Positions 6,072-40,225 of a DNA stretch of 40,225 nt are shown here, one piece after another. A program made the translations under genes and the position numbers. The notes below the pieces were generated by a model. The model was not told the DNA's origin. It searched no databases and saw only the letters and a program-made list of their open reading frames with translations. The DNA lies in contig ML978132.1 in NCBI GenBank assembly GCA_010015805.1, forward strand, positions 868,001 through 908,225, in the 5' to 3' direction. How positions within the stretch are numbered: the stretch's first letter is position 1; every line of letters begins with the position of its first letter. This DNA is from Rhizodiscina lignyota (lineage: Eukaryota).

Positions 6072-6336
6072 GGTGAATTGCGATCTGCTTTGGTCGTTCC
6101 AAGCCCCTATCCACGGTACGCTGCAAACGATCAAGCTGCGGTTGCACTCCTTCGCTTGCTTTTGTTCAACAAATTCAATTTGGCCGGTACACAGAAGACA
6201 ATTCAGAGAAGATGCAAATGGCACTCTCAAACTCGAACAGCATCAAGCATGGAAGCCACAGAAGCATTGTGGACGTTCGAATTGCCAGAGGCGTCGAATT
6301 GGTTTTTGAGGGATGAACGGGACCAACGGTAGACAA

Positions 6337-6914: not shown

Positions 6915-8564
6915 ATGTCTTTACAATCTCTCTATCAATATCGGAAGCTACAAAAACTTGTTCGGGAACAGCTGCAGTCGACCGATCGTAATGCCATCAC
7001 TGCTTCTGACAATGCGAATGCGCAGAAAGATGAGCTCTCCAAGGAGTCGGATCTGGAAAAGCAAACAGACATTCCAACGTTACCGGCTCCACTTCCAAAC
7101 AGTACTTCTATTTCCTCATCTGACGCTACCGGCGAACCCACCTTCATCATTGTTCAATTCGACGGACCAGACGACGAAATGAATCCCCAAAACTGGTCCT
7201 TGACGAAGAAAATTTGCACCACACTTCTCGCACTTTCGTCCGGTATTGCAGGTGCTTGGGCATCCGGCAATGACTCTACCATCATACCACAAGCCAAAGA
7301 AGCCTTTGGGGTGAGCGACGTTACCGAGTCTCTCTCCACCGGCCTCTACTTGGTTGCTTTTGGCTTGGGAGCTTTGTTCAGCGGACCATTTTCGGAGACC
7401 ATTGGCAGAAACCCAGTATACATCATTACGTTGGTGCTGTTTGGGATCTGTATCATGATCGCTGGTCTTGCACCAAATATTGGAGTTCAACTGGCTTTCC
7501 GCTTTCTCGCTGGGTGGTTCGGCTGCACAGCAATCACAATCTTTGCGGGCAGCGTCGCTGACCTCTGGCCTCCAACCCAACGAGTCTTGGTGCTCTCCCT
7601 GACGTGTGGTCTCAACTTTTGCGCAGTCTTTATCTCTCCAGTCGTCGGCGCCTTCATCGGTCAGAGCAGTGCTAGCTGGAGATGGACGGAATGGATCTCT
7701 CTCATAATAACTGGCGCCTCGACAGCCTCCATCTTCTTCTTCGCCCCCGAAACATATGGACCCCAGATTTTGTCATGGAAAGCTGCCATTCTGCGCAAGG
7801 AGACGAGAAACACTCACTTCCGCTCGAATCATGAGTTGAAACTAGAACCGTTGTCGCGCCGCTTGTATCGCAGCACATGGAGGCCATTCGACATGCTCGT
7901 ACACGAACTGTCCATCGTCCTTTTTACAATTTACTTGTCAGTGTTGTATATTGTCGCGTTCACATTCCTCACCGGATACACTTATATCTTCGGAGACATC
8001 TACCACATGTCGCAAGGTGCAGTTGGGCTCTGCTTCCTCAGCCTTGTCGTTGGTATCATCGTGGCCGGCGCAATTTCGGTTCCCCTGCACTTCCACTACA
8101 ACCACAATCTGCGCATCGCCAAATCAAAGGGACAATCACACCTCCCAGCAGAAGACCGACTCTGGTTTGCCATCATCACCGCACCCTGCCTTCCCATTGC
8201 CTTATTTTGGATGGCGTGGACCTTATACCATTCGATAAGCTTCTGGAGCAGTCTCGTTGCGAGTTCCTTGGTCGGAATTGCCTTTCTTGGCATCTTCATC
8301 GCATCGTATCTGTATATGATTGACACGTTCGATTCGTTTGCTGGAAGCGCACTCGCTATTGGTGCTGTTATTAGATACGTGGCTGCTGGGGCGATGATTC
8401 CGGTTTCGATTCCGATGTATGAGAACTTGGGCGTACACTGGACTCTGACGCTGCTGGGCTGCATCAGTCTCATTCTAACTCCGGTGCCGTTCGTAATGTG
8501 GAAGTTTGGATACGCTATCAGGAAGAGGAGTAGAGCAGCCAGCAAGAAGGCTCTCGTTGAATAG
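6915..8564 (+). CDS. MFS drug:H+ antiporter (DHA1 family), intronless
   Basis: FDGPDDEMNPQNWSLTKK, GPFSETIGRNPVY, FRFLAGWFG, WRWTEW, PETYGP, AEDRL and YMIDTFDSFAGSALA motifs. Likely ATG at 6915. Confidence 0.93.
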   Translation: MSLQSLYQYRKLQKLVREQLQSTDRNAITASDNANAQKDELSKESDLEKQTDIPTLPAPLPNSTSISSSDATGEPTFIIVQFDGPDDEMNPQNWSLTKKICTTLLALSSGIAGAWASGNDSTIIPQAKEAFGVSDVTESLSTGLYLVAFGLGALFSGPFSETIGRNPVYIITLVLFGICIMIAGLAPNIGVQLAFRFLAGWFGCTAITIFAGSVADLWPPTQRVLVLSLTCGLNFCAVFISPVVGAFIGQSSASWRWTEWISLIITGASTASIFFFAPETYGPQILSWKAAILRKETRNTHFRSNHELKLEPLSRRLYRSTWRPFDMLVHELSIVLFTIYLSVLYIVAFTFLTGYTYIFGDIYHMSQGAVGLCFLSLVVGIIVAGAISVPLHFHYNHNLRIAKSKGQSHLPAEDRLWFAIITAPCLPIALFWMAWTLYHSISFWSSLVASSLVGIAFLGIFIASYLYMIDTFDSFAGSALAIGAVIRYVAAGAMIPVSIPMYENLGVHWTLTLLGCISLILTPVPFVMWKFGYAIRKRSRAASKKALVE

Positions 8565-9013
8565 AGTGAGCAAGGTTCCCGGGGAAAACCTGCGTGAATC
8601 TTTGATGTTGCTCAATCTGTTGAAGAAGATTCGAGAAGGTCTGGAGAGTTGTCGGAAGAGAGGAAATAGTAGGTAGAGAGGACAAAATTGCATAGCTCAT
8701 TCGTTCCTTAGTTATTCAGGTTGTGGCACCATGTTTGTGTTCCCAATCGAACGGTCGCCCCCACATTTCTTCACCTTCTATGTGTTTGGTATCGATCATT
8801 GCACTGTATATGGAAGGTGGTGCATGAAAGGTGATAACTGTGTTAAGGGGTGTTGCTTGTGATTGGAATCTTGAAGTTGACGCCTCACTTGACCAAACTC
8901 GGACTCCTCCAAACGATACAGGCACACTAACACTACCCAGCGCACATCTCTTATAAAATGCGGAGAACCCCATTACTACAAACACCTCCATTTCCAGCTC
9001 AGAAATTTACAAC

Positions 9014-9586
9014 ATGACGTTCACAAAACGAATCTTCGGTCGCAGGGAGTTTTGGAATCGAGCCAATCCTCTCCAGTTCCCAACTGATTGTCGAGTCGAG
9101 GGCATCTCCATCATGTGGAACAGATCTTCAGCAGCCGAAGTGGAAATCGACAAAAGCCTGGTACGCGAGAAACTGGAAGAAGTGCGGGAGATTACGTTGG
9201 GCGGAGAGTGTTATCAATGCGGCAAGGTTTACTACGTGAACACCGGATTTCTCAGAAGCGGAAACGATGAGCTTACCGAAGCAATCAGGATGGCCAAGAT
9301 CCACGCAATTTGGAGAAATCCGGGTAGCCTAAATCCGAATGACGTTCTTTTCGTAATCTGCTGGCACCATGGACAAACGGACCGCAATGAATTCGGCAAG
9401 AAGTGGTGGGGAGAGCTATTCAGACCGTGGAACTTCAAACCGCCTGTTCTGTTCTCTGACTTTGACGAAGGAGGCTTCCACGATGTTGTGACAGGAATGG
9501 AGATGACATCGCAGACTGAGAACTTTCGATTGGGGATCGAATCAGACCGAGAGTGCGGTTGGAAACCGATATTGCCAAAGGAGTGA
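9014..9586 (+). CDS. Hypothetical protein, 190 aa
   Basis: Intact ORF between two convergent/tandem genes; ACAACATG start context; TATAAAA at about 8952. No family recognised. Confidence 0.6.
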   Translation: MTFTKRIFGRREFWNRANPLQFPTDCRVEGISIMWNRSSAAEVEIDKSLVREKLEEVREITLGGECYQCGKVYYVNTGFLRSGNDELTEAIRMAKIHAIWRNPGSLNPNDVLFVICWHHGQTDRNEFGKKWWGELFRPWNFKPPVLFSDFDEGGFHDVVTGMEMTSQTENFRLGIESDRECGWKPILPKE

Positions 9587-9931
9587 AGGCGGCAAAGCCT
9601 GGAACTTTGACATGCCGGATCGCTCCCAGAATCGAATTTCGGTGGCCTTTTCTGACTGCTCATGACTCTACAATGCTAGCACGCGTCATTTCTCGTTTTG
9701 GTGAGAGGGCGTCAAAGCGTTACGGCGCCACTACCATATAGCGAAGAAGCAACGACTAATCGGGTATATGTGCCTGCTCAACTTTAATGCTAGCACACAC
9801 AATGCATATTCTGTCATTACTTATGCCATGTCACAGTTCACAACTTGCGCGAGGGTTGTTGCGATTGGCCACATCGTCTGTCGCGTGTTGATGACACTGC
9901 GCGTATCTGCTCCTCCAAATAATACTGCCGC

Positions 9932-12046
9932 TCACACCAGACCAGGACCTTCAAATGCGGTGAGATCCATATCACCCAGTTCTCCCCCAAAGAAGGGCTC
10001 AGCACCAAAGCCGATGCTGCTGCTGTATTGCAGTGCTTCCCAGTACTCTGACTTTTTGATGCTCCCATTGAGGACAGGGCACATTGAACCATGCTGCCGC
10101 TGTTGACTTGCAGCCTGGGAGTCTCGCTTAGCAGCTGATACAGATTCATCATACTCTTCCCGCAGTATTTTCAACACAGACTTGAACAGAAAGAAATGAT
10201 CTGGTGCGGCTCTATCTCCATCAACATCCCCCGCAACCTTGCTTGTGGTGGTGAGTTCTTGCATGCGGTAGCATATGCTCTCAATGATCATGCCAAAGCG
10301 AGCTTCTTTCCTCGCATCCTCGTCGTCCCACTGTGGTGCGGAAGGAATGCGGAAGCAGAGCGTTGACATGATCTTTACTGCATTGATCAGCTGCGCCCAC
10401 TCGACGAATGACATGTTGAGGTATTCGGATAGATGGAAAGACAGAAGAGTGTCAAAGTACGCTCTTGTCGCCTTGAAGCATCGTGATAATAGTGTGAGAC
10501 GCAGTGTCTGGGTATCTGCGGGTGAGGTACTCAGACGATCCGGGGGGAAGTCTTCGGAAAGGGCAATAGCATTGATTTGCATTTCAGCATAGTGTCTGGC
10601 CAGCTGCCAAGATGCTGGGGCAATATGTCAGCAACTCCGCACATGGAATATCCTGGCGTTGATTACGAACATGTTTGTTGTGTTTCCGGATCAATGTATT
10701 CAAGAACTGAAATCAATTCTTTGTGCATGGAGTCGCCGGCGCAAAACGCCGAGAACTGATCGAACTGATGATCTCGGATACTCATATCGGCGTGCTCAAC
10801 TGATTGCTGAAGCATCACATATGCACTGATCTGTTGGCCCACACCATAATCGGCCCCCGAAAAGTATGACCACTCATTTCTACATTTAGCGGCCCACTTG
10901 GAGTATGGGAGATTGTTTGCTCGGCGAAAACACACTGCGATGCTTTCACATTCAATCAGCGTTGGCTGGAAGATGGTTACAGCTATGGACTCACGCGGAA
11001 GAGAGATAGTAACACCCAAGATATGCTGCCTGTGTCATCCGAATGAAGCTGGCCTTGTCTTGATCAACTGTTGCAGAGGCAAGTTCACGGGGGTTTGGAG
11101 ATTCGTTGAAGTGGAGGTCGATAATCATAGAAATAGCGATCTGCAGTACCTGAAAGATTTGTCGACTGTGAGGTCTCAAGTGCATTGGATACCTTCAATG
11201 CAAGAATTTAGCATATAAGCGTGCAAGAAAAGGGGCCTAAGCAATCCGGAGCAGCTCACCAGGCAATCTGGACAAGAATGCCTTGAATAAGGTCCAAGCT
11301 CTTCTCCCCGTTGGTGACCGCTCTCTCAGCCAGCACACGGAGAAATTCGGCATGGAGGTGAACATTTAGGGTCACTTCATGCAACGTCATGGCTGAGAGG
11401 ATGCCGAGGAGGAGGAACGGATGATCTTGTTTCATCTGCTGCACAGTCCAGCCTTGAGGGAGAGGGACAAACGGGAAGTAACTGCGGAGTCGCTCATACT
11501 TGCGCAAGTACCGTTCCACATCAGAAGGCTCTAGCGACTGTGGAATGTGGGATCCGAGATTGGGCTTATCCGAGCGCGGACTGGTAGAGGAAACTGTCCC
11601 AGATTGGGACCCAGAACCTGAATCGGATGGCACATTCCCTCGAAACAGTCGAAGAACAACGTTTCGGTGGAACCAATCCAAGCTATTCACTACCTCGGCG
11701 GAGGCCCTCGAAGCGCTTGAGTCGACAGTATCACCCTTCTGTGTGGGCTGTTCGTGGTCCGATGGATGTTCTGCCCCTGTGGAAGAAAGTTCGCGTCGCC
11801 GCCTCTGAGCATACGGTGTCCGCCTTTGCTTAGAGGCACTTGCATATGTACAGGTATGGCCTGTTACAGAGCAACTGGTTCGAATTCAGCCAATGAAGAG
11901 GAAGCAGAGTCAGCATCGAACCTCCGGCACGTAGGAGATTGTTCGCTTGGGAGGCAGCGAGCCTTTCGAGCACGGCAGCGATCGCACGCACGAGAGATAC
12001 GTGGAGCAGGACAGGTCGACGATATAGAGGAGTTGACAGAGCTCAT
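9932..12046 (-). CDS. Zn(II)2Cys6 transcription factor, about 5 exons
   Basis: Removing intron 11921-11875 gives ACDRCRARKARCLPSEQSPTCRSCSVTGHTC. Middle-region motifs FPFVPLP...HPFLLLGIL...GEKSLDLIQGILVQIAWYPMH join across intron 11259-11193. Two more GT-AG introns near 10990-10945 and 10665-10615 link the remaining ORF pieces. The 3' end is less certain. Confidence 0.88.
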
Positions 12047-12452
12047 GATTGTCTCGATTTCCGCGCTGCGGAAGAAAGTTGAGAGAGACGATGTGACGTC
12101 TTTGAGGCCGGCGTTGATGATGACTTTGGCCGACCAGATCGGAAGGAAAGTTTTGACGACCTCCGAAGAGGCGGAAGGGAATGTTTAGCGGCTGTCTCCC
12201 GACTCTGCAGGAACGCAACGCCGCCGGAAGAGCATGAATTGCACAACAATCGCCTCACGAGTATCAAGTAATCTGAGATATCTCTCACACTTGATGATCC
12301 GAGTATCGTGGCGATCAGCCTCGGTCGTTTGATGTATATATACGTCCTCAAATATGGCGTCTCATCTCCACATCCGTGCTAACATTTTATCGTAAGTCGA
12401 CCATTTTAATCTCTTCAATATTAAGTCCTTTCTTTGGGCCATAAGGTCCACT

Positions 12453-13211
12453 ATGGCCTCTTCAATTCTCCCAACGAAGGTCATTGCGGGCGTGACAGTC
12501 GTCGATACGCCCTTGGTCCGCGCCGCTCAGGAATACGCCCGCGCACACGGCGATGACATGACTTTCAATCACGTCATGCGTTCTTGGCTCTTCGGCGTCA
12601 TCATCTATCACAAACTGAGAGCTAAAGACGCTTTCCCATCTGTCGATCTGGAGGTTCATGCCTTGAGCGCGATCTTGCATGATCTTGGTTGGGATACTAC
12701 GGGAGAGCTCATTTCCAACGACAAGCGCTTCGAGGTCGACGGAGCGATTGCAGCTAAGAATTGGATCAAAGAGAGGCAAGAAAATGGAATGGCGAAAGAC
12801 TGGGATGAGCACAAATTGCAGCTCGTTTGGGATGCTATTGCTCTTCACACCACTCCCTCAATTGCAGCATACAAACAGGCAGAGGTTTCTCTCTGCGGTC
12901 TGGGAATCGTTACCGACTTTCAAGGCCCCTACTCTGATCCTACGCAGATGACAACTTGGGATGAATTCAATGCAGTGAAGGCAGAATTTCCGCGGCTCGA
13001 TCTGGCTGGCGGGATTCGGAAGATGATGTGTGGCTTTTGCAAGACAAAGCCCCAGACAACATACGGTTCGAATCTCTTTGCCGTCCTGCTAGAGGATCTA
13101 GCTAACCTTGGTGCAGACACCTTTATGATGGCTTTTGGGAGGAAGCATGTTGAAGGCTACAAGACGGATGGAAATCTTTCTATCGATATAATGGACAACT
13201 GTATCGAATGA
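12453..13211 (+). CDS. HD-domain metalloprotein, cyanamide hydratase-like family; probable in-frame intron 13066-13116
   Basis: FNHVMRSWLFG, AILHDLG, KRFEVDGAIAA and VWDAIALHT motifs. Candidate intron GTTCGA...GCTAAC...TGCAG. Confidence 0.82.
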   Translation: MASSILPTKVIAGVTVVDTPLVRAAQEYARAHGDDMTFNHVMRSWLFGVIIYHKLRAKDAFPSVDLEVHALSAILHDLGWDTTGELISNDKRFEVDGAIAAKNWIKERQENGMAKDWDEHKLQLVWDAIALHTTPSIAAYKQAEVSLCGLGIVTDFQGPYSDPTQMTTWDEFNAVKAEFPRLDLAGGIRKMMCGFCKTKPQTTYGSNLFAVLLEDLANLGADTFMMAFGRKHVEGYKTDGNLSIDIMDNCIE

Positions 13212-26631: not shown

Positions 26632-28153
26632 TCAACTCCAAAGCTTCGGCCCTCCGCTCCTCAACTTCTGGAACACTGCATTCGGGTCGTACTTTTTTGA
26701 GATTTCCCTCATTTGATCCATATTTCGGGGCTCCCAACTGGCAAATGCATCTTGCGTTTCGTTCGCATTGTTGATGTACAAGTACTTGTGAGACTTTCCC
26801 TCGGCCTCCGCTACCCGCTTCATCTCGTCGCTGATCATCTCTGTCCAACGCATGACGCGCTCATCGTCTTTTGCGTGCTTCCAAGTGGACCATTGCATCA
26901 TTCCGACAATGTCTTCTTTGAGATTGTCGATTGCCCATGGTCCATCACGGTTCTTTTCGAACGCAGCGACTGTCATGACATTTGCAAATATATGGAATTC
27001 ACCGCCTTCGATATCTGAAAGATGCTCTTGTGCTGAAGACTGGTAGAGCTCGAAGAGACGTTGGAGCAGCTTCGTATCTTTGTATATTGTCGATGTCGAG
27101 ACGTACCGTCTATTAGCTTGTTAGTGATCAGGCGTGGACGACAGCGAAAATGGCTGTCCAAAATGTTGCTCACCGGAAGCCATATGGGGCAACCATGAAG
27201 CTGAATTTCACGACGCCCGGCCAGCTACTCTTTTTGAAGGTACTATTGACCATCGGGAGAGCATTGAAATGTCGAAATACCGGTGGTGGTTCGTCCGAGT
27301 CGTGAGGCCCATCATAAAAGAGACTTGCCATAACCATTCCTTTAGCTGGACTCATGAGCATGACGCCGACATGCGGGCTATTGCCCTCCTCTGTGGTGAA
27401 CGAATCGAGCGCATCGAAAGCCGCACCGAAGCTCGTGGGAGCGAAAATATGAGCGCCTGCCCAGATGTTCTGCCTCGCAAATGTCTTCAAGTCCAGGCGC
27501 GTGACGATGCCAAAGTTGCAGATACCCCCTTTCAGCGCCCAAAACAGGTCTGGATGAGATTTCGCGGTGACGTCGAGAATTTTGCTGTCCGCAGTGACAA
27601 CCTGGAAGCTCACGATTGTATTGGCCGCGAATCCAAAACGATTCCAGTATGGGCTGAGTCCTCCACCGAGCAGAAGACCTCCGAGTCCTGGAGTGGCCTG
27701 ATTGCCTGCTCCGTCATCAGCGTCGCACTAACCAGCTTGCACAGTTCACTGACCAGCAGCAATTGTGGTTCCTTTCTCTTCCAGGAAATCATATATCTCT
27801 GTGAGTGTAATTCCAATATTGGTCCGTAGGACCGTTCCGCCTTCACTACCGGTCTCGATCAATTCCAAGCCCTTCAGGTTGGAAGTAGATATCACGACTC
27901 CTCCATCACTGTTCGACGCCCATCCACGATTCGCATTATGCCCTCCTCCTTTAATGCTGAATGATATCTGATGCTCGACAAGTTGTTCCAAACCTTTGGC
28001 CAGCTCTTCAGCAGAGTTTGGTATGAAGACGGCGCCAGGTTTCAAGAAGACAGTGTCGGTCCAGTATTTGGATGCGCCTTGGTATTCTGACGAGTCGGGA
28101 AGGAATGTCGATTGAGGCAGCGTTGCCGCGAAGGTGTTAATGCTTGAAGTCAT
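26632..28153 (-). CDS. FAD-linked oxidoreductase (VAO/BBE-type FAD_binding_4), 3 exons
   Basis: FSIKGGGHN covalent-FAD His motif; spliced AAGNQATPGLGGLLLGGGLS; PDLFWALKGGICNFGIVT; C-terminal YLYINNA...KKYDPNAVFQ. Introns near 27753-27706 and 27174-27110. Confidence 0.9.
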
Positions 28154-30067
28154 CGTTTATGTCGAGGTTTGAGGTGAGGTCGATTTCGAGGGAGGAATGC
28201 GGGGAGGGTCGGGCAATATGTATCTGGTATGGGCGACTTGTGCATCGCGCGCCTACTCAATAGCAAATGTAATCATGCCAATGGTTCTGTGAGCTGAATA
28301 TGAATGATGAAGCAGCCGCAGCTTAATCCGTGTTCTGCCGGCTTATAATTGCTCCACTGTCAGCAAAATTTCCGTCAGCAAAGCGGAATGAAAATGAGAT
28401 GTCCAGTAGACTGAAGATTCAAAGAAACAACTGGAGTCGCGAAATCAGAACAGGGTTAACTGTCCGGAGATGGTTCCAATACGCGTGCGAAGTACGCGTC
28501 GTTCGAGTTGCATGTAAGACGTATGATCATATCAGGGCAGAATGGAGCCAAGATTCCAATTGGGATACAGTCTTACTGAATTCAGCATATACCGGGACTG
28601 AATGGATTATGCATAATTCAAGTGGCAAGGTATGAGCTTGGAAGTGTCGGTGATGACCTGAAGAATACTAAGGGCCTGAGATAGTCTCGGTATCTTCGTC
28701 GGCATCATTTTCGGCATAGAAAGCGGACAGCGAGACAAGACATTGAGCGGTCAATACTAGATTTCCGTCGGAGAAGCACGTTTCGTATGGTAGTGATGTC
28801 GGCAGATGAGATTGATCCAGCAGGATGAAGACGCGCTTGTCATGGTCGACATCAAAGATTACAGATCACCGCAAGAAGAGATTGACGCTGATACGATAAG
28901 ATTGATAAGATCAACACAACGGACTTTTCGGCCTTTCACGATTATCCGCTCCGACGACACTTTCATCCCTGCGTCGTCATGATGGCGAGGTTGGCATGCA
29001 TTTCGAGACGACCCTCATCCACATTACATTTTCACGATGTTCTGATTCGTGGACATGTCCGACGATGCCGAAGCCCGAGAACAGGTACACAAGGCAGTGA
29101 AGACAGTTCCCATGATGCAAGTCCGAGTCGTGTGATGCATGGAAACGACGATCTTCTCGTCCCCCGCCTGAACTCGGTATAGCGATGGGCGATGTCCCAA
29201 CTCCGAGCCCTTTCAATCTGTTCAAGTGATGTTTGTTTGGAATGAAGCTAACATACGCTAGATGCCTCTCACGTGGCAATACTTTGCGTTCATCCTGTGC
29301 AAGACATTTCATTGCACTTTACGCAGACCAATGCCGAGTACGTTCTCGCATCGAAGCATGGGCGATGCTGTCATGTTTAAATTGCCAAGATATTCGGGCT
29401 ACGGGAATAGGCTGCAAACAACCACAACCAGGAGATCCCATGGATTATGCGTGGAGGTTGGGCCAATCGGCTTGAAGCACGCCCGTGGAGCAGGAGTGGG
29501 CAACTTGTTCCTGAAAGATGGACAGATTCCCTCGCCATTCGTTCTGCAAGGGTCCGTTGCATCATGGCTACGTGCCTAATCAGGTCACCGGATGTACCAT
29601 CTGAACCTAACGTGTTCTCCACAAGCTACCCTCCACAAGCCATCTCATCCCAGGATCATCCTCAATCCACGCCGTTTCTTTCAATGAGCCACGGACAGCA
29701 TGCGAGTTCGCGTGGATTCCCTGGAAGCGGCTTCTCATGCCTTCTAAGCGGGGCAATCGCCCGGCGAACAGGTGCCGACTGAAGTACTTACGAAGCAGAT
29801 CGGCACGCGGGGAAGATTAACCACGCATCGTATACTCTCGAAATGTTACGTGCAGATGACACGTTGGAATGCTGAACTACTCGTTCAAGACCCTGATCTT
29901 CAAGCTCTCTGATGGACAGCATGGTTCTTGGCTCACGATGCAATACCAGAAGTTCCGTAGTTATTAGCACCCTGAAGCTTGGCTCTAATGTTTGGTAAGT
30001 ATAATGCAAGGCTCCTTGTACACCATCGTCTTGTTTCGCTTCAGGTACCTTTCAATCCATTCTCAGT

Positions 30068-31597
30068 ATGTCTCATCATCTTCGATATCTTTTGTTTACG
30101 CTCAGCGCATCGTACGCTGTAGTGTACAGCAACCCGAACAATGATACTGGAAAATTGCCAGGGATGGGATGGAATTCATGGAATGCGTACAATTGTAACG
30201 TGACAGAAGACGACATCCTGACAGCCGCGAAGTCAATCGTCGACCTTGGGCTCAAAGACCTCGGTTACAATACCGTGACAATCGACGACTGCTGGTCCAT
30301 GAAAGACGGACGAGACAATGCAACAGGAAGACTCCGACCGAATATGACGAAATTTCCGGATGGTATCTCGGGCGTTGCGGACAAGGTTCACGCAATGGGT
30401 TTGAAATTTGGCATCTACTCTACTGCTGGCAACATGACTTGCGGAGGATATCCTGCGAGTTTGGAGCATGAGGAGATTGACGCTGAGACTTTTGCGGACT
30501 GGGGCGTGGATTTTCTGAAATACGACAATTGCAATGTTCCGAAAGAGTGGGAAGATGTCTGTCAATACTGTTTGCCCGATGAGCTTCAGTCTGACGTAAA
30601 GTTTCAGCCGAATGGGACTTGTGAGTCAATTCAGAAGCTTTCATTATAAATGGCTAATCTGTGATAAAGGTAATAAAAACACATATCCTCAGCCGTATGT
30701 GTCGTGCCACGCCCACAGCTAGCTTCTAATGAGGCTGCATCTCCTGAATCCGAGTGCTGACAAGCTCTGTGTAGTGAATTCCCCCCACTCTGTCCGCAAA
30801 GCTTTGATTACACGACTTCGAAAACATTTGAGCGGGCAAAACGAATGCGCGATGCCATCGACAGCACGAATCGCACGATTCTGCTCAATCTTTGCTTCTG
30901 GGGTTACGCAGACGTTCAATCATGGGGCTCACAAGTCGCAACATCGTGGAGGTCAAGTGATGATATCCAACGTACGACACGACTCGTTACTGTTTCGACA
31001 TGATTTGCTAACGGCATCGCAGAAAATTGGCCTCGCGTCGCTGCGCTGCTGAATTTCAACGCCTTCCATCTCAGCAATACCGACTTTAACGGTCATTCCG
31101 ATGCCGATATGCTCGAAGTCGGCAACAATCTCACCATCGCGGAAGCCCGGTCGCATTTCGCATTCTGGGCAGCAATGAAGTCGCCTCTGTTCATTGGCAC
31201 GGACTTGACGAAGCTCTCCTCATCGAATGTCAGCATTCTGAAGAATCCCTACCTTGTCGCGTTCAATCAGGATCCAGAGTACGGTAAACCCGCAACGCCG
31301 TACAAGTGGGGATTCAATCCCGATTGGACGTTTGATCAGTATCATCCCGCCGAGTACTGGGCTGGCCCGAGCAGCAATGGAACGCTGGTGCTGATTCTGA
31401 ATCCGAGAAATGATACTACTGTCATGAAGACGGCAGACTTTTCAGAAATCCCTGGCCTCGACAGTAAGAGCCCGTACGGCGTTACGGATGTTTGGACGGG
31501 AGAGGATCGCGGATGTCATAAGGGATCGTACACTGCGGATGTTGGAGTACATGATACAATGGCCATATTGCTGCAGAATCGGTGTGATAATTACTGA
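30068..31597 (+). CDS. Secreted GH27 alpha-galactosidase; exons 30068-30620, 30670-30694, 30775-30971, 31023-31597
   Basis: [58 protein letters not shown] and AFNQDP. Three GT-AG introns give one continuous frame. Confidence 0.93.
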
Positions 31598-32236
31598 TGT
31601 TAATCGCTTGTCATGCCGCTCGCTTCTTCAATACTTTGCAAATTTCTCACGGCTGCCATCTCCGCTGCATTGACAGCTATGAGATGATGTCGGAAGTAAT
31701 GTCACGCTCCGCCGGCTTGCAAATGTCAAAGTTAGTCCAATGCTCCTCTTACGCCGAGCTGTTTATTCCACGTTGCCTTGTGACTTGTCGAAAGGAGACA
31801 TTCGATATTGGGGCGGTGATAATTCAGCAAAGGCCAAAAGAGACAATGAGGCACTGTCAAGCGAATCGGGTCCAAAGCTCGGAGAATTAAAAATCAGCGA
31901 GTATTCTAAACAGGGCTCTCGGCCCTCTCCACTTCCTCCAAACCCATATTACTCTCTTAAGAGGGCTCTCGGCCCTCTTGTTAGATATAGGGGGTGCTAT
32001 GCTAACCGGCTTAGCTTGCAATCTCTAAGGAGGACGATTCTATATATATCTAGCCTTAGAAGGTGCCTTATTCGCGCCTTTAGCAGCTTTAATTAATGTA
32101 ATAATAAGCCTTATAAACGTATATCTCAATCTATGGCTCGGATTCGGGTTAGGGCTTAGGCGCGCGGCGGGCCTAAATAGGGGGAAAAAAAGAGCGGGAC
32201 GGCGAGCGGCGGGTACTACTCAAGCATTCTACTCTA

Positions 32237-32388
32237 GAACGCGTCGCCTTCCCGCAACTTGCCCCATTTCACCCCCTTATTGATACCTAGGAACGCGTCG
32301 CCTTCCCAATTTCACCCGCCTACCCCCTATGTTACGCGCACGGATCGCGTCGTGATTTACTGCCCTCTAGGAACCCGTCGCGAATTCC
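32237..32388 (+). repeat. Dispersed direct repeat GAACGCGTCGCCTTCCC (32237, 32291) plus a variant at 32371
   Basis: 17-bp exact match twice; third copy reads GAACCCGTCGCG. Confidence 0.8.
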
Positions 32389-32530
32389 TCTCCCCCTGAA
32401 TCTGGGCTTGTATAGCCTGTACGCTGCGCGCCCGTCCGCACTTAATAATAACTACTTTAACTACTATCATACTATTAATCTAATCGTACTAATCTCTTTT
32501 TTAATCTCTCTCGCGCTTACTCGCTCGCTC

Positions 32531-32531
32531 G

Positions 32532-32577
<46 letters not shown>
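32531..32577 (+). repeat. (CT)n microsatellite
   Basis: Nearly perfect CT dinucleotide run. Confidence 0.95.
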
Positions 32578-32578
<1 letters not shown>

Positions 32579-32659
32579 AGCTTATTATCTCTTAAGAATA
32601 ATATTTTAAGCCCTCGTCGATAAAACTAAGCTATCCAGCCGCTAGGACTCTCTTACGAG

Positions 32660-33056
32660 CGCAGACTAAGACTAGAGGCTTACTATATTAGGGCTGTATC
32701 TAGACTAAACTAAGCGCGTTATTATCTGTACAGAGTGTAAGTACGCGCTTAAGCCGTCCGCTAAGGCCGTGTCTAAGCACCTTTAGGAGAAGTACTAAGT
32801 GCCTACCGAAGCCCGCCGCGGCCTTAATACCTTTATTAACTTACTAAACCTACTACATCCTAATAAGCTTAGTCTCCGGCCTAACGGCTCTATACTATAC
32901 CCGTACCTTACCGTCCAATCTAGCGCGGCTTGTAAGTACTACTAGTACTAGTCTACTAGCCTTAACCTCGTACGGCGCTACCTAGCGAAAGGGTACGGTC
33001 GAAAGGGCAGCCGTAAGACCTAGCTTCGTAATAACCTCTATACTAGTCTAAGCCTA
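32660..33056 (+). pseudogene. Truncated, RIP-mutated DUF3505/OrsD-like zinc-finger fragment (type found at the N-terminus of TLH-like proteins)
   Basis: Reads LGLYLD*TKRVIICTECKYALKPSAKAVSKHL*EKY*VP...RPNGSILYPYLTVQSSAACKYY*Y*STSLNLVRRYLAKGYG. CxxC...H...H pattern with RIP-type H>Y and C>Y changes; similarity ends near 33056. Confidence 0.75.
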
Positions 33057-33752
33057 ACTCGTACCATACGACCGGTTTAAGTCGAACTGATTTAAGCCTG
33101 CTAACAAATTTAGCGCCGGTAGGATAAGGAGGGGGTCGGACTGATTTAGGGTTTAGAGTCGAACCCGATTTGCGAGAAAGTAGCAAAGTAGTGCCTAGGG
33201 GCGGGTTTTAAGCGTATAGAAATATAGTCCTAGCCGCGCCCGACCCGGCCATGCAGTCAGAACTATTAGGGTCACGGTGCGTTGTTGCGTTGTGGCCGTG
33301 GTCCGCGGTGTGCAGGAGTTTTCGTGTTCGCGGTCACGTGATCCGAGCAGGATTGGCAGTTCAGCGCAGTACGCAGCGAGCAAAACAAGTCGCGGTCGGA
33401 CGCAGCAGGCAGGTAGGATAGTAGGTAGTATATTACAGTTAAAGGCGGGTAAGCTGTAGTTAAATATAGTAGGTTAATAGGGTAGTACGCGCCTGTTTCC
33501 ACAGTACGAAAGTAGTTTCGTAGTCACGTATTTTAAGTAGGGCGGGCGGGCGGGTATGCGCGCGTAGCGCGGCTAGGGGCTAAAGCGTCGAAGCTACGAA
33601 ATAAGAAAAGGGGGAGAAGATTAGGGATTTAAGTAGATAATAAGACGTATTATTGAGTTCAGAAGGCCATTTAATAGTTGCCCTAGTTATTAGTTAAGGA
33701 AGAACCTATAGTAGAACTAAGGAGGGAGGGAGATTAAAAGATTAGGGGAGAG

Positions 33753-36700
33753 ATAGCAGGTTTCAGCGATTATTTCGAGTATTTACCGTAGTACAAGGCG
33801 ATTATTTACAGGAGGTGCAGGTACGCTATTATTAGGAGTAGTATAGGTTTACATTTAAGCTAGAAGCATAAGAGCGAGTTGACGGTAGACGCGCGTAGGG
33901 CGATTGTAGTAGAGGCGAGTAGTATCGCGGTAGAAGACATCGTAGTTACACGTGAGGAGGTCTAGTATCTAGAGCCTACGTTAGCGCTATTAGCTAGTTT
34001 GTAGTTATAGGACGATAGTTATTAGTACGACGAGTACAAACACATACGCTGCACGCGGGAGGATATATAGAAGTATTATAGGTAAGAGTACAAGTAGGCG
34101 AATAGGCGCGGCCGCGGTAGGGCGATAAGGTTAGCTATTATAAAGGCGCGAGAGCACGAGATATAGACGGCAGGCGTGTATTACTAGCAGTTTTTCAGGA
34201 TAGGAGGGTAGTAGCGGTTGTTTAAGGTAACGGCGAGGCTAGGGGGTAAGGGTAAGGGTAAGGGAGATAAAGGAGAAAGTACAGTTAATAGGGATAAGCA
34301 GATACAGCGCGTTATAAGGCAGTAGATAGAGAGGGTTTTTATGTTAGCAGATAAGCGGTTAAAGCAAGAGGCTAAGGAGGAGAGGGCGATAGTCTAGGCT
34401 AACACGAATAGATACGTACTATAGACGTAGTTAAGGAGGGCGGGATAGGCGAGGCATTTAGAGGGGTTTAACCGTAGGTAGTTAGTTAAGATAGCGGAGA
34501 TACTAGTAGATAGAGATAAGAGCGACAGCGATAGTAATAGTAGTAGTAGTAACGATAGCAGCGATAATAGTAGTAGCGAAAGCAGTAACAGCGAAAGTAA
34601 TAGCGAAAGTAATAGCGAAAGTAGTAGTATAATAGATGTAAGAAGAGAGTAGGAGTTAGTTAGGGTGTATAATATAGTACAAATAGTTATTTAGGAGGCG
34701 TAAAAGGCAGCATAGCTAGAAGTTATAGGTTTTACAGCCGCATATTATATAAATAGGAGAGAGACAGGCGAGATATCGAATAAGAAGCTATTAAACACGA
34801 GGTAGTAGGGCAAGACGATCGAGAGGTACGCCGAGGTTTAGTATAAGGTAGTTTGTTATATTTAGAGGACGTAGGGTTTACTAAAGGCGATAAAAGGGGG
34901 GAGGGGGAGGAGGAGTAGTAGGAGTAGTAGTAGTAGCGACAGTAATAGCGGGTTAGGGGACGCGTCGACAGGGCTAGTAGAAGAGGATTTAGAGGAAGAT
35001 TTAGAAAGGGATTCGGGGTTAGATAAGGAGATGCGTATAGAGATCGAAAGGGCTAGGTAAGAGGGAAGAAGGTAAGAAGGGAGGGATAGGAGAGAAGAGG
35101 CAGAAAATAGTATTAAGTAGAAAAGACCGCCGTATAGATTGACTAGCAGACAGATTAGAGTATTAATACAGGTTAGACAGGCTATTAGGCGTGAAGAGGA
35201 GTAGGGTAAGAAGGTATAGGGGCGGGGGTAAGAGTAGAAGTAAGAGTAGGAGTAAGGAGAGGAAGAGAGGGGAGGAGATAAAGAAGATAGTAAGGTAGAA
35301 GCGGCGATATTAGAGTTTTTGATCGCATTGTTAGACCACGACGTGCAGGACGACGCATATACAAACGGCATCGTTAGTAGATTGGCGGTTTTAGGGTTAG
35401 ATAAGGATTGCGCGTAGAAAGGGCCGTCTAGGGCGATACAAGCATTGTTAGCAGTCGTTACAGTCGCTAGGATATTAGTTTTATACTACGTAAAGTTAAT
35501 AAGGGAAGTAGTAATTAAAGAGATAAGGGAAGAGCAAGGTTTTAGCTAGGTAGAGGCATTAAAGAAGGCGCCGACCCATTTCTAGTTAGCATAGGAGATA
35601 GTATACAGGTTTATAACGTTAACCGCATTTAGTAGCAAGCTAACGCCGATAAATTAGGTTTTAATGTTAAGGATGTACGGGTTAAAGGTATATTATAGCA
35701 TGGCGGCAGACGGAGTAGTAGATTAGGTTGGCGATAGGTTGTTATACGGCTACATTAGTTTTAGCATACCGGATTTACAGGCAATAATCTATAGGTTAGT
35801 ATACGCGTTATAGTTAAGGTTTAAGAGGAGGTTGTTATTATTACATGTTAACGACGAGGGCTAGCCTAATAGCGCGGATACGACAACGCGGTTACTACTA
35901 GTAAAGATAGACTAGATAGTAGATAATATAGTAGAGATAAGGGTTAGGTAGAGTTTCGTAGACGACAGGCGGAATAGAGAGGCGTTTAGCGGCGTTAATA
36001 GTAGTAAGTAGATAGTAGACAGAGTTATAGGAGAGTAGTAGTTACGCGAGGAGTTTGTCGATACTAAGGCTACGTACGATATAATCCGTAGAAGCTAGTA
36101 GTAGTAGTAGTAGCGGCGGTAGCAGAATAGTAGCGATCCGGTTATGTAGAAGAAAGATAGGATCTAGTAGTATAAGAAGGATTTAGACGCGTATAGGCAG
36201 GATTTATTGGTATTAATATATATAATAGGAGGACAGCTAGCTAGGGGCATAGAGATCGTTATAGTATGGTATAAGAACAGCGCGGACGGCGCGGGCAGAG
36301 GCATTTTCGTGGAGGACGGGATGGTGGTGTACGTGGTGCGGTACCACAAGGGCGTGGGGTTCAGCGGCAGGGAGAAGGTGATCCACCGGTATTTGCCACA
36401 CGAGGTCGGGTCGTTGTTGTTGTACGATTTGTGGTTGGTGAGGCCGTTTTGGGACAGGTTGGAGAGTGTTTCCACCGTCGCATCGACGGCGGCGGCGGCA
36501 GCGGCGGCGGCAGAGGTCGAAGGAGATGGCAGCGGCAATATCGCCGGCAACAACAGTAGAAATATCGCTAGTAGTAGTAGAAGCGGCCGCAGCCCGTTTT
36601 TGTAGGAGCCAAAGCTAGAACAGGCGTAGCAGGGCCTAAAGATAAGAGGGAGAAGACAGTAAGGAGGAGGAGGAGGAGGAGAAGAAAGGGATAATAGAGA

Positions 36701-39452
36701 GGACAGACAGCAGCCGCCGTCGATGAAGACGGTGTATTGGGACACGGACAGGGTCAGAAAGGCGATCCAGAAGGCCAGCATGACATATTTAGGGGTGAGG
36801 ATAAACATTATGTGTTGGAGGCACAGCAGCAAGGCGATTTACAGGCGGTATATCAATGACAAGGCCATCATCCAAGCCATCACGAGAGGAGATGAGGACG
36901 GTGGGCAGCAGGGAGAGGACGAGGGGGGGGAGGGGCAGTATGTCAACGGGTTTAATTAGAGAGAGGTCGGATTCCATTTACAGATAGGCTATAACGCGTA
37001 GATAGGGGAGGGCATATATAGTAAGGGCGTCGATAAGTCGCTATTCTATACTATAGCGCAGTAGGTCATGTTTCGGAAGGTTAGTAAGGAGTAGCATAAG
37101 TTTTTAATGTTCGAATCGGCGTTACAGGAGCCGGCTAAGCAGGGTTTAGTAGCGGCCTATAGGAGGCAGTAGGCGGAGGAAGAAGAGTTTAGGAGGTAGG
37201 TAGCAATACGGAAGACAGACATAAGGAAGCAGTTGCGGAAGTTGGTCGGGCCAGACGCAGAGTTCAGAGGGTTGCAGGAGCCGGCGATCAAGGCGATTAT
37301 GCAGCAGAGAAGCCCGGTGGTGGCGATCATGGCGACGGGAGAGGGCAAGAGTTTGTTATTCATGTTGCCGGCGTTTTGTTCCACGGGCATGACGGTGGTG
37401 GTGGTGCCGTTGATCATGTTGAGGCAGGACATGGCGGCCAGATGCAAGGCGGCGGGGATAGAGTACGTAGAGTAGAGTAGCGTAAGGCCGTACGAGTAGG
37501 CGTTAATCGTATTTATAACGCTAGAGTTAGCGGTAGGCGTAGCGTTTAGCCAGTTTTTAAACAGGCAGAGGGTAATAGGCCGGTTAGATCGAGTAGTAAT
37601 TGACGAGTGCTATATAGTATTAGATTTGAGCGAGGGGGGCGGGTAGAGGAGTCGGGTTTTACGGTTAAGGGAGTTAATTAGGGTAGAGACATAGATAGTA
37701 TTTTTAACAGTAACATTACCGCTAGCGGACGAGCTAGAGTTTAAAAGATTAATAGGGTTCGGCGGTAGTAATAGTAAGAAGAGAGGCGGCGGTAGCGGTA
37801 GTAGTAGTAGAGAGAGCAATAGTAGTAGTAATAGAGAGAGTAGTAGTAGTAGCAAAAGAGAGAGTATAGAGAGAGAGGGAGAGGGAGAGGGAGAGGAAGA
37901 GGGAGAGTATTAGTTTAGGGCGCCGACTATAAAGAAGAATATTAAATACCAGGTAATTTTTCATAGCTAGGCGGAAGAGGAGGAGACGGTAGTTAGATTA
38001 GTAGAGGAGAAGAGGGCGTAGTATGCGATACTAGGCTAGATTATAGTGTATTACGATATAGTCAAGAAGACGGAGAGGTTAGTAAAGGTTTTAGGGTATA
38101 AGTATTTCTATAGAGTAGTAGGTAGTAAAGAAGAAAAGGCGAAGTTGTTACAGGTGTTGAAAGAAGGCACGGAGCAGGTTTTCACGGCGACAAACGCGTT
38201 GGGATTGGGGGTTGATGCGCCGACGATTAGGGTGGTCATACACGTGGGCAGGGTGAGGAAGTTGAGGAGTTTCGTGCAGGAGAGCGGCAGGGCGGGCAGG
38301 GACAGGAGGGCGTGCGAGTCGATCGTGTTACAGGCGGTTAAGGTCGATTAGAGGACGGGTAAGGTCATATAGGAGGATAGGAGCTAGTAGGGGATAGAGG
38401 ATAATATGATAGAGTTTATAGATTCGTAGGGTAATAGCTAGTATAGGAGGGTAGTATTAGACAGGGTAATAGACGGTAGGAGGGACAGAGAGGGGTGTAA
38501 AGAGGAAGAGGAGGCGTATAACGTGTATTACGGGAGGCGATTACAAGAGGGAGAAGGGTAGTTATAAGGGGAGGGATTGTAGTAGCAGACGGGATTGTAG
38601 TAGGTAGAGGGATTATAGTAGTAGGAGGGATTATAGCAGGCGGAGGGATTGTAGCAGGCGGAATTGTAGTAGGTAGAATTGTAGCAGGTGTACATATATA
38701 GCTAGAGTAGGCAGAGTAAGGGGAGAGGGAAAAAGAGGGTTATTAATAAGAATAGCGATAATAGTAGGGATAGAAGTAGGGACGAGAGGGAAAGGCAAGA
38801 GTTAAGGATAGAGTTTAATAGGGAGATAATAAGGCGTAGGGCTAGAGTAAAGGGCGAGAGGGTATTATAATAAGAACAGATAATTATAGAGTAGAGGTTA
38901 GAGGATATATTAGAGGAGTAGTACGCGGGTTGTGCATATTGTTATGTAATAGGCGATAGAGTATATATAGGGCACGAGTTCGAGGAGTGTTTAAGGGTGG
39001 GAAGCGAGGTCGACGCAGAGATGTTCAAAGAGGTGGTCAGGGAGGTTAAGGAGGGCGTCGAGTGGCAGAGGTTTGCGGGTTGTTGGGGTTGCGGGGTGCC
39101 ACAGGGGGTTTGCAGGACGTGGGAGTTGAACGAGGCGAACGGCAGGTGGAAGTGGCGAAGGCAAGGGGTTTTCCAGTGCCAGCATAGGAAAGGAGTGTTG
39201 ATCGAGGCGGTGGTGGCGTTGTGGTACGTGAAAGGGGAGGAGTTTAAGGGGTAGGTAAGAGGGGAGAGGGGGTAGAAGCAGGAGTTTTTTAATAATAAAG
39301 GTAGGAGGGGTAAGGATGTGGATGTTGAGGTTGGCAATGACGACGATTTGGGGGGGTTCAAGAGGTCGTTGGTCAAGTGGTTGGGGTTCAAGGAGATGGT
39401 GGGCGGGTTCGAGAGCAACAACGCGTGCAAGGTGTTGATTCGATTCGGGTAG
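33753..39452 (+). pseudogene. Telomere-linked RecQ-like helicase (TLH) pseudogene, ancestral ORF about 1899 aa: DUF3505-like Zn finger, central domain, RecQ helicase, Cys-rich C-terminus
   Basis: All surviving + ORFs (36207, 36723, 37233, 38046, 38997) and the inferred start ATA(<ATG) at 33753 share one frame. Motifs: FRGLQEPAI, ATGEGKS (I), VVVVPLIML (Ia), IDEC[Y<H] (II), LT[V<A]TL (III), ATNALGLGVD (V), QESGRAGRD (VI) and CWGCGVPQGVC. Probable stop TAG at 39450-39452. Confidence 0.9.
38571..38690 (+). repeat. Coding minisatellite of 18/15-bp units (de-RIPped: EGLQQQ/EGLQQA/ELQQV)
   Basis: About 7 units of GAGGGATTGTAGYAGGYG-like sequence, in frame within the TLH relic. Confidence 0.75.
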
Positions 39453-39560
39453 CGGCGTTTGTTTATTTATTAATTGTCAGATTGAGCGGGCGAATTTAAG
39501 GCGATTCTAGGGCAGTTTTCGAGCATGAATTCAAGACAGCGCTAGTTGCGTAGGGAGTGT

Positions 39561-39842
39561 CGGCGGTAGGAGAGAAGGGGGCGATCCGATAGGTATTTGC
39601 CGCGCGAGGTGGGCGAGTTGTTATAGTACGATTTGAGGTTGGTAAGGCCGTTTATAGGGTTTAAGTTAGAGGAGGTTTTTACGGCGATCGCGTCAACGGA
39701 TTTAGATAGTAGCAGTAGGATTAGTAGTAGTAGGGACAGTAGTAGCAGGAGAGGTAATTAGTATAACCGTAACCGCCCCCGTTTTTAAATAGTTAGGACG
39801 ATTTGAGGTTAGTAAGGCCGTTTATAGGGTTTAAGTTAGAGG
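39561..39842 (+). repeat. Diverged duplicate of TLH internal segment 36361-36490, with a second 45-bp local duplicate (39628-39672 vs 39798-39842)
   Basis: GGTATTTGCCGCGCGAGGTGGGCGAGTTGTTATAGTACGATTTGAGGTTGGTAAGGCCGTTT aligns to GGTATTTGCCACACGAGGTCGGGTCGTTGTTGTTGTACGATTTGTGGTTGGTGAGGCCGTTT. The 45-bp pair differs by one G/A transition. Confidence 0.85.
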
Positions 39843-39958
39843 GGCAAGTTTAGAGATGTTTTAGGGTAGTTTTCGAGGCGATTTCAGAGTGGTTTTCAAG
39901 TGGGAATTCTAGTAGGGTTAGGGAGTAGTTTTTCAGGCGAAATCAAAGAGTAAAGGCG

Positions 39959-40105
39959 AGGGTTAGGGACAGTAGTTAACAGTAAGGGTTAGGGATAGTA
40001 GTTAACGATAAGGGTTAGGGACAGTAGTTGACGGTAAGGGTTAGAGACAGTAGTTAACGATAAGGGTTAGGGACAGTAGTTAATAGTAAGGGTTAGGGAC
40101 AGTAG
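39959..40105 (+). repeat. 26-bp tandem array containing telomeric GGGTTAGGG (about 5.6 copies)
   Basis: Units start at 39959, 39985, 40011, 40037, 40063 and 40089; consensus AGGGTTAGGGACAGTAGTTRACRRTA. Confidence 0.95.
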
Positions 40106-40202
40106 GTAGTATAGGGGAGTTTAAAGAGGGAGACGAGAGTAAGAAAGTAGTAGTAGTAGAGGCCCGAACGGAGCAAGGCAGGGTGCGCGGCGTCCCCGCG
40201 CG

Positions 40203-40225
40203 GTTTGTTTGTTTGTTTGTTTGTT
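40203..40225 (+). repeat. (GTTT)n microsatellite running to the window edge
   Basis: GTTT repeated to the last base. Confidence 0.95.

Follow-up and report, generated by a model that had tools for sequence, protein, structure and literature searches.

We have analysed a 40,225-nucleotide stretch of the Rhizodiscina lignyota genome (contig ML978132.1, positions 868,001 to 908,225 of the forward strand; hereafter the window, with positions counted from its first letter), the right-hand part of which holds a telomere-linked helicase (TLH) unit next to the remains of an older unit (unit A). In many fungi the chromosome ends are capped by helicase units of the TLH and Y' types, which have so far been read as passive subtelomeric repeats that are spread by homologous recombination. 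The TLH unit described here is about 7 kb long and, as judged from sequence comparison, its left terminus is defined at 33054-33057. We consider it rather probable that the junction is to be read as follows: the defined left terminus of the TLH unit was joined to codon 152 of the truncated older unit, the two were stacked at a chromosome end, and a set of short motifs beside the terminus binds the element's own protein. The original prediction, made from the letters of the sequence, had described one TLH-type element nested into another, with the left end of the inserted element at 33057.

The left side of the junction is marked by the end of a gene fragment. The frame of 32601 reads ...RNNLYTSLSL up to 33056 and then continues as ACTCGTACCATACGACCGG. 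The translation of 32601-33179, with stops read as X, was used as the phmmer/HMMER query and gave 321 protein matches (E<=1e-3); in the five best of these the match stops at query residues 150-153 (33050-33059) and yet the proteins extend to 439-592 aa. When seven homologues of the left gene were compared with the window using tblastn, five of the matches ended at 33056 and the other two at 33050 and 33071, and none of the seven gave a further match anywhere else in the window. The homologues go on ...LSLQSWTQNG where the window goes on ACTCGT. The frame and the homologue ends agree with the original prediction that the fragment is coherent to NNLYTSLSL at 33056. The rest of the left gene is absent from the window, so the proposed nesting is not borne out. 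Because the terminal word CTAAC and the last matching left-gene codon, CTA, both start at 33054, we place the join within 33053-33057 with an overlap of 3 nt, such that CTA (33054-33056) serves both as a Leu codon of the left gene and as the start of CTAAC. The predicted junction base is within 3 nt of this position.

Immediately to the right is the terminal leader of the TLH unit (CTAACTCGTACCATACGACCGGTTTAA, 33054..33080, + strand), which has a tip like the telomere C-strand and which matches the leaders of related units, among them L058 (CTAATTACTATGCCACGAAC) and L012 (CTAACTACAATCCCACGAAG). Three direct copies of a motif follow on the + strand: copy 1 (GTCGAACTGATTT, 33081..33093) 27 nt after the terminus, copy 2 (GTCGGACTGATTT, 33135..33147) 54 nt after copy 1 and copy 3 (GTCGAACCCGATTT, 33158..33171) 23 nt after copy 2. 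The pattern GTCGRACN{1,3}GATTT is found at three places in the window, all on the + strand, against an expectation of 0.01, and 0 of 100 shuffles reach three; the three copies that had been listed at 33081, 33135 and 33158 are thereby confirmed. The core GTCGRAC by itself shows no enrichment, with 10 copies against 9.2 expected. A TTAGGG at about 33146, to which the prediction also drew attention, is indeed present. The window has 25 TTAGGG words, where 14.5 are expected, and 21 of these are + strand copies located from 32149 on; the copy at 33146 therefore carries no weight alone. TTAGGG as a conserved part of the cluster was rejected by eye, since among the motif-cluster loci only L032, L039 and perhaps L056 have one inside.

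Other comparisons of the junction region gave no signal. A transition-tolerant local alignment of 33057-33230 with the tail, the left region and the promoter was no better than shuffles, and a purine/pyrimidine word search at the junction gave one match, at chance level. In blastn searches of the window flanks against the 80 related loci described below, the junction region had no match and only coding sequence in the tail was matched. A MAFFT alignment of the upstream region of the window with four relatives left the motif copies out of register and is not used as evidence.

The relatives comprise 80 loci from a scan of metagenome contigs, 41 of which hold a TLH N-terminus. Of these 41 contigs, 24 start only 312-844 bp before the ATG, as would follow from assemblers stopping at repeat boundaries; the corresponding distance in the window is 699 bp. 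L028 and L029 are 100% identical over 771 bp from exactly CTACCCATTATT and their left flanks are unrelated. L029 and L048 (79% identical) start at the same base, the alignment of L028 with L048 extends 9 nt further left, and L002 and L003 start at CTATCAATC, the flank in L003 being only 2 nt. The same terminus thus adjoins unrelated flanks in relatives, suggesting that it has been used repeatedly. The predicted discrete element, with its left end at the junction, is accordingly supported, as is the expectation of same-base starts with different flanks, in both cases among the metagenome relatives (L028/L029 and L029/L048). In L019 and L032, truncated TLH coding sequence lies directly left of the terminus, which is the topology of the window. 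The overlap at the join is 3 nt in the window and 0-1 nt by eye in L019 and L032; because these overlaps are small, long homology at the joins is not indicated. Downstream of the open reading frame (ORF), 9 of the 41 relatives run into true (TTAGGG)n arrays, with the orientation unchanged.

The upstream region of the relatives follows a common design. It begins with CTA(A/T/C)C as the terminal word, which reads CCCTAAC or CCTAACC in some loci. After this come a short conserved leader and a motif of 11-14 nt, initially as an inverted pair, beyond which there are two more direct copies. An 11-mer (<=1 mismatch) is present at least three times upstream in 29 of 40 loci, compared with 7 of 40 coding controls and 31 of 800 shuffles. 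Eight loci (L012, L019, L028, L029, L048, L058, L073 and L032) share one geometry: the distance from the terminus to the first direct copy is 27-33 nt and the next distances are 54-55 and 22-25 nt (27, 54 and 23 in the window). The motif itself is different and lineage-specific in each of the eight, and the spacing is constant. Six further loci have a spacing of 61-64 plus 23-24 nt, or of 55 plus 23 nt. Of 19 loci, 14 have no copy of the motif outside the upstream cluster and four have a single further copy, which is about the chance level. With CTAAC at 33054 and its three motif copies, the TLH unit has the discrete centromere-side boundary, marked by short repeats with telomere-like words, by which such units are recognised. 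Only one of the 19 loci, L003, has motif copies on the right side; its tail (6160-6250) contains a tandem array of a 14-nt unit, AAATCAGGAAGAAT, that is the inverse of the locus's own left-end motif, CTTACTGATTT. Another arrangement is seen in L061, L064, L066, L067 and L069, where 6-13 copies of CCCATAACCCA replace the three spaced copies 50-300 nt before the ATG; these arrays mostly have 14-15 nt spacing with some longer gaps, and the word is like a telomere C-strand variant.

The TLH gene itself is a pseudogene at 33753..39452 (+), delimited by alignment to the intact relatives P0001 and P0002 and by Pfam. Its ORF has 1,899 codons with 105 internal stops (all TAG/TAA) and no frameshifts, and the ATG at 33753 is now ATA. 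The translation is 44-48% identical to P0002 (1,737 aa) and P0001 (1,817 aa) despite repeat-induced point mutation (RIP). The Pfam domains OrsD (33792-34094), DEAD and Helicase_C all lie in a single frame of the ORF; a RecQ-type helicase is at 37332-38303, and a Cys-rich C-terminus is at 38928-39095. The ORF thus has the features of a TLH gene: an N-terminal C2H2/OrsD part, a 'TLH domain' and RecQ-type helicase motifs. The OrsD domains of the left fragment and the TLH ORF are in one frame and are 27% alike over 37 residues, which agrees with the two DUF3505-like domains of the prediction, the second being divergent. The upstream (promoter/5') region of the gene (33172..33752, +), characterized by its RIP indices, includes an un-mutated island at ~33230-33420 and a block, CGGTGCGTTGTTGCGTTG, that resembles ACCGTTGCGTTGCG in L002 and L003.

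Between OrsD and the helicase lies a middle domain (~35292-37100, +) that we describe as tyrosine-recombinase-like, an identity assigned from relatives. In an alignment of 28 intact relatives R75, K110, R252, H293 and Y302 are invariant, and the H and Y are 9 residues apart. The invariant contexts are R in P-A-R-G-x-E, K in Y-H-K, H-R in I-H-R-Y, R in W-R-H, H in G-H and Y in I-Y-G/A-R. The boxes lie in the window, on the + strand, at 36228-36254 (box I, ARG), 36339 (YHK), 36378 (HRY), 36813 (WRH), 36978 (GH, changed by mutation to GY in the window copy) and 37005 (IY). AlphaFold models of the middle domain have predicted local distance difference test (pLDDT) values of 75.7 and 70.7, and its neighbours in the ESM Atlas belong to Phage_integrase, NDC10_II, Integrase_2 and DUF3435 clusters with scores of 0.81-0.84, which are leads only. 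The TLH middle domain has, as predicted from models, a tyrosine-recombinase catalytic-domain fold. The middle domain was found in 679 proteins; among the 120 listed, none is named a recombinase or carries PF00589. In the available part of a preprint on Fusarium TLH genes (2024) the 'TLH domain' is listed without a function. Among openly readable papers, most of them judged by title and opening of the abstract, a literature search found no link of TLH or RecQ helicase to tyrosine recombinases or Cryptons, the accessible portions of the DUF3505 papers that were checked contain no TLH-tyrosine recombinase link, and literature matches to 'Crypton-H' were class labels only.

The fragment to the left of the junction (32601..33056, +) represents codons 1-152 of a RIP-inactivated gene, placed by phmmer, tblastn and Pfam OrsD in a family with OrsD and a tyrosine-recombinase-like domain. 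It has 10 in-frame stops, and its start ATG is now ATA. We take the ATA at 32601 as the mutated start codon because query residue 4 pairs with residue 4 of the best match. The Pfam OrsD match has an E value of 6.1e-13 and falls into two stretches, the best at ~32706-32985. This family and the TLH proteins have only the N-terminal module in common (24% over 249 residues, E 2e-8) in a direct comparison. The profile of the TLH middle domain is matched by 5 of the 150 family members listed (of 321); four of the five are long proteins (P0145, P0117, P0098 and P0207; 956-1,231 aa) with E values of 1e-38 to 2e-26, and no helicase is present in the members that match the profile. The left piece is, on these similarities, assigned to a helicase-less sister family of TLH with OrsD and the same middle domain, and not to a TLH-type element as had been predicted. 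A word-based protein search with the RIP-mutated fragment gave no match, and an un-mutated allele from the same species is absent among the closest phmmer matches. A full sister-family gene (OrsD plus recombinase-like domain) is found in L008 at 507-3311, and a TLH gene of the same orientation (8178-12914) follows it at a distance of 5 kb; the sister-family gene has its own CTATCAG leader and repeated CTTG(T/A)TCAAACTTCCCC.

Unit A may have the same kind of left end. A tentative terminal leader (TATATCTCAATCTATGG, 32122..32142, +) resembles, by eye only, the start of L003 (CCCTATCAATCTATGGG) and that of the sister-family unit in L008 (CTCTATCAGC), and the RIP signature sets in about 100 nt to its left. 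Three copies of an iterated motif, GAACSCGTCGCS, start at 32237, 32291 and 32371 (within 32237..32382, +), 54 and 80 nt apart from start to start, and a degenerate copy lies near 32344. At <=1 mismatch this motif occurs four times in the window, for which 0.63 are expected and which 2 of 100 shuffles reach; three of the four are upstream of the left gene.

Both units are RIP-mutated repeats, with an excess of TpA, a depletion of CpA/TpG and changes that are nearly all transitions. The signature extends from ~32,000 to the window end at 40,225, with un-mutated islands between. Outside the islands TA/AT is 1.3-6.3 and (CA+TG)/(AC+GT) is 0.16-0.7, compared with 0.2-0.9 and 1.0-2.1 before 32,000, and transitions account for 1,017 of the 1,020 places changed between the window and other copies in the sequencing run X1, the only run found. 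RIP later riddled both units, which are now dead.

The data fit a sequence of events in which the older unit A would have been located at a chromosome end, the end would have been lost back into the ORF of unit A, and a TLH unit with its own telomere side would then have been joined by its terminus. Stacking at the chromosome end, not nested insertion, is probably what the junction records, because relatives with the same topology run into telomere arrays or sit on truncated TLH copies. The motif copies are predicted sites for the element's own protein, either through the recombinase-like domain or through the OrsD zinc finger, and would mark, and perhaps process, the terminus. That the motifs are probably bound by the element's own protein is suggested by their fixed geometry, their lineage-specific sequence, their position at the tip and the recombinase-fold domain predicted in the same ORF. 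The original proposal that the repeats could be recombinase-binding sites gains circumstantial support from a geometry that is conserved with a variable sequence and from the predicted domain. The join could be the work of the element's own protein, of end-joining that involved a linear form, or of break-induced replication.

Several observations weigh against this reading. Even when E values up to 10 were allowed, Pfam matched nothing, PF00589 included, in the part between OrsD and DEAD, and no recombinase was found in a sequence profile search of PDB or in PHROGs. The best Foldseek rows, XerH, Cre and Xer, are at E 0.39-3 with none at E<=0.001, and the HxxR box reads x-x-W-R, its first His not being conserved in the 28 relatives. 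Most relatives have an inverted motif copy ahead of copy 1, for which no counterpart can be recognised in the window. With regard to a terminal position, no true (TTAGGG)n array follows the TLH unit in the window. In run X1, the 8 pieces (of 1,066) and 6 loose ends (of 53) that were listed include none across 33057. Additionally, the left fragment is itself multi-copy in run X1, with a summed depth of 1,400-1,600, and so the left fragment and the TLH gene may travel together as one block.

Such a block is the basis of a different explanation, namely a single old junction within a larger subtelomeric block that has been spread by homologous recombination or break-induced replication. The motif cluster would then be a promoter, insulator or silencing element, like HAR-CDEF (helicase-associated repeats, HAR) or X elements, and the recombinase-like domain would have no role in the spread. 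The depth of the left fragment is like that of the main TLH contigs in run X1 (1,100-1,500; minor contigs 72-138), RIP is continuous over both sides of the junction and the cluster has a fairly constant place upstream of the ATG. In the available text of the Magnaporthe oryzae study, the helicase-associated repeats are seen as possible telomere-protein or silencing elements and region II is common to some ends (Rehmeyer et al., 2006; PMC1635262). We regard this explanation as rather improbable, since the same terminus adjoins unrelated flanks in relatives and the site of a host factor is not expected to vary by lineage and yet hold the 54/23 spacing. The copy numbers in run X1, from which 1,063 contigs map on 32590-39900, hint in the same direction: 12 contigs overlap at 33192 and 3 at 32662, and the summed depth jumps to 4,900 in the bin after the left fragment, suggesting more copies on the right of the junction than on the left, although copy number is measured poorly when depth is summed over variant contigs. 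No site at which many run X1 contigs begin or end was reported, which is uninformative because contigs stop at branch points. Position 32662 is T in all three covering contigs (summed depth 980) and C in the window, so run X1 is not an exact copy of the window here.

True nested insertion would mean that a two-ended mobile TLH unit integrated into the older ORF by circle-integration or cut-and-paste through its recombinase, with the rest of that ORF past 40225. A sharp join at the canonical terminus with a 3-nt overlap would suit such an event, as would the predicted recombinase-fold domain encoded by the element and the end of the window, which lacks a telomere array and has non-telomeric sequence after TTAGGG-bearing repeats. 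Yet no remainder of the left gene is in the window, and 9 of the 41 relatives with the same layout go directly into (TTAGGG)n, so that there is no room for the downstream half of a target. A defined right end and a target-site duplication are both unseen, and the motif is missing from the right side in all but one of the 19 loci. Taken together, these points make nested insertion quite improbable in our estimate. It is very improbable that the junction is an assembly chimera in which two repeat families were misjoined. Both sides are repeated in run X1, and of the words sampled from 30500-35500 only 0.70 are present there, as a chimera might lead one to expect; against this, the 3 nt shared at the join are too little to mislead an assembler, and the join falls exactly on the canonical terminus of independent relatives, where a random mis-join would not.

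The preferred reading, a TLH terminus stacked on a truncated older unit, can be extended to a bolder proposal that is possible but in our view doubtful: TLH genes would not be genes of the host for telomere maintenance that happen to lie in subtelomeres, but the single ORFs of widespread chromosome-end mobile elements. Their protein would unite a C2H2-type (OrsD) DNA-binding domain, an active tyrosine recombinase and a RecQ helicase, and the recombinase would join the CTAAC(CC) tip to broken ends. It would recognise lineage-specific sites of fixed geometry at the left tip, namely the inverted pair and then the copies at 54 and 23 nt. A broken or eroded end would be capped with the telomere side of the element, the tip serving as a minimal inverted telomere seed, and the helicase-less sister family would have the same tip design.

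The tail of the TLH unit (39453..40225, +) contains TLH coding fragments, 26-nt repeats and then (GTTT)n at the window end. The fragments of internal TLH coding sequence, at 39584-39653 and 39794-39842, correspond to the RYLPREVGELL..YDL..VRPF stretch and are 84% like 36388-36449; they look like scars of earlier truncations. Six tandem 26-nt repeats at 39933-40131 each carry GGGTTAGGG or a variant, oriented as at a right chromosome end, and un-mutated GC-rich sequence and the (GTTT)n come after them.

The composition of the two sides differs as the original prediction had claimed for the right side, which is G-rich (33420-36240: C 0.110, G 0.315); the C bias of the left side is milder than claimed (32640-33056: C 0.269, G 0.204). 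RIP was rejected as the source of the G-richness right of the junction. The excess of G over C is also kept in the un-mutated islands and is therefore native to the TLH element. Islands at 36250-36600, 36700-36950, 37200-37450, 38140-38340 and 38980-39450 match the most conserved protein motifs of the pseudogene, namely the recombinase-like box I/K/HRY, box II, helicase motifs I and V-VI, and the C-terminal Cys cluster. The islands might be gene-conversion patches from intact copies, or might come from a mosaic assembly consensus.

Ordinary fungal genes occupy 1-31,600 of the window. The last of these before the repeat zone (27100-31600) are a FAD-binding oxidase (flavin adenine dinucleotide, FAD; - strand) and an alpha-galactosidase (Melibiase_2 + Melibiase_C; + strand) that ends near 31,570. 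Between these genes and unit A, AGGGCTCTCGGCCCTCT occurs twice, 49 nt apart, in 31913-32010, and CTAACC is at 32003, where the RIP signature starts. This region may be the scar of a still earlier join, of unique DNA to a first unit.

Crypton DNA transposons are eukaryotic elements with a single ORF that encodes a tyrosine recombinase and a DNA-binding domain, and they have no long terminal repeats. They are not known to carry a helicase or to be tied to telomeres. The TLH unit can be likened to a Crypton by description, but Pfam PF00589 fails to match the TLH domain. Crypton-type transposons have two defined ends and insert at internal genomic sites by recombination; in the TLH unit the left end is defined and no right end was seen, and relatives run into telomere arrays. 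Recombinases of the Xer/Cre/lambda type also differ, in that the TLH domain is without the conserved first His of the HxxR box and shares its polypeptide with a RecQ helicase and a C2H2-type domain, and a second partner site is not evidenced.

The closest likeness by description is to TLH region I of M. oryzae, as given in the available portion of the paper on that species (Rehmeyer et al., 2006; PMC1635262), to which the comparisons in this paragraph refer. In both cases the helicase gene points to the telomere and is accompanied on its upstream and downstream sides by short helicase-associated repeats, some of which contain GGGTTAGGG; the six 26-nt repeats of the window recall HAR-F. The 'near' boundary of M. 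oryzae is discrete, the ends diverging at the first or second C of CCTAACC..., and the word in the window is C|CTAAC. HAR-D contains a 23-bp imperfect palindrome, like the inverted pair of the relatives described here, and terminal truncation is frequent, also inside the TLH ORF. In contrast, the boundary repeat of M. oryzae is a tandem array of 14 nt (HAR-C) whereas the window has three spaced copies at 27/54/23, and the M. oryzae boundary adjoins unique DNA whereas the window copy is RIP-dead and adjoins a truncated sister element. No recombinase domain is named for TLH in that portion of the paper. The Y' elements of Saccharomyces cerevisiae are, according to the descriptions available, subtelomeric helicase-encoding units of 5-6 kb that can lie in tandem next to the telomere and are amplified when telomerase fails (PMC1635262, PMC4522978).

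The junction itself is of the known kind, a TLH near boundary; the site geometry across lineages and the recombinase fold of the TLH domain appear to be new. The window alone provides an exact map of two dead units, which we read as stacked. With that geometry and that fold, TLH units look like recombinase-bearing chromosome-end elements. A reused terminus, lineage-specific sites in a fixed geometry and a predicted, so far unannotated recombinase-fold domain with invariant residues of catalytic type in the same ORF suggest that the joining reaction may be encoded by the element. If this is true, it would bear on the healing of broken chromosome ends, on the uniformity of subtelomeres within asexual lineages and on the pile-up of truncated units at chromosome ends.

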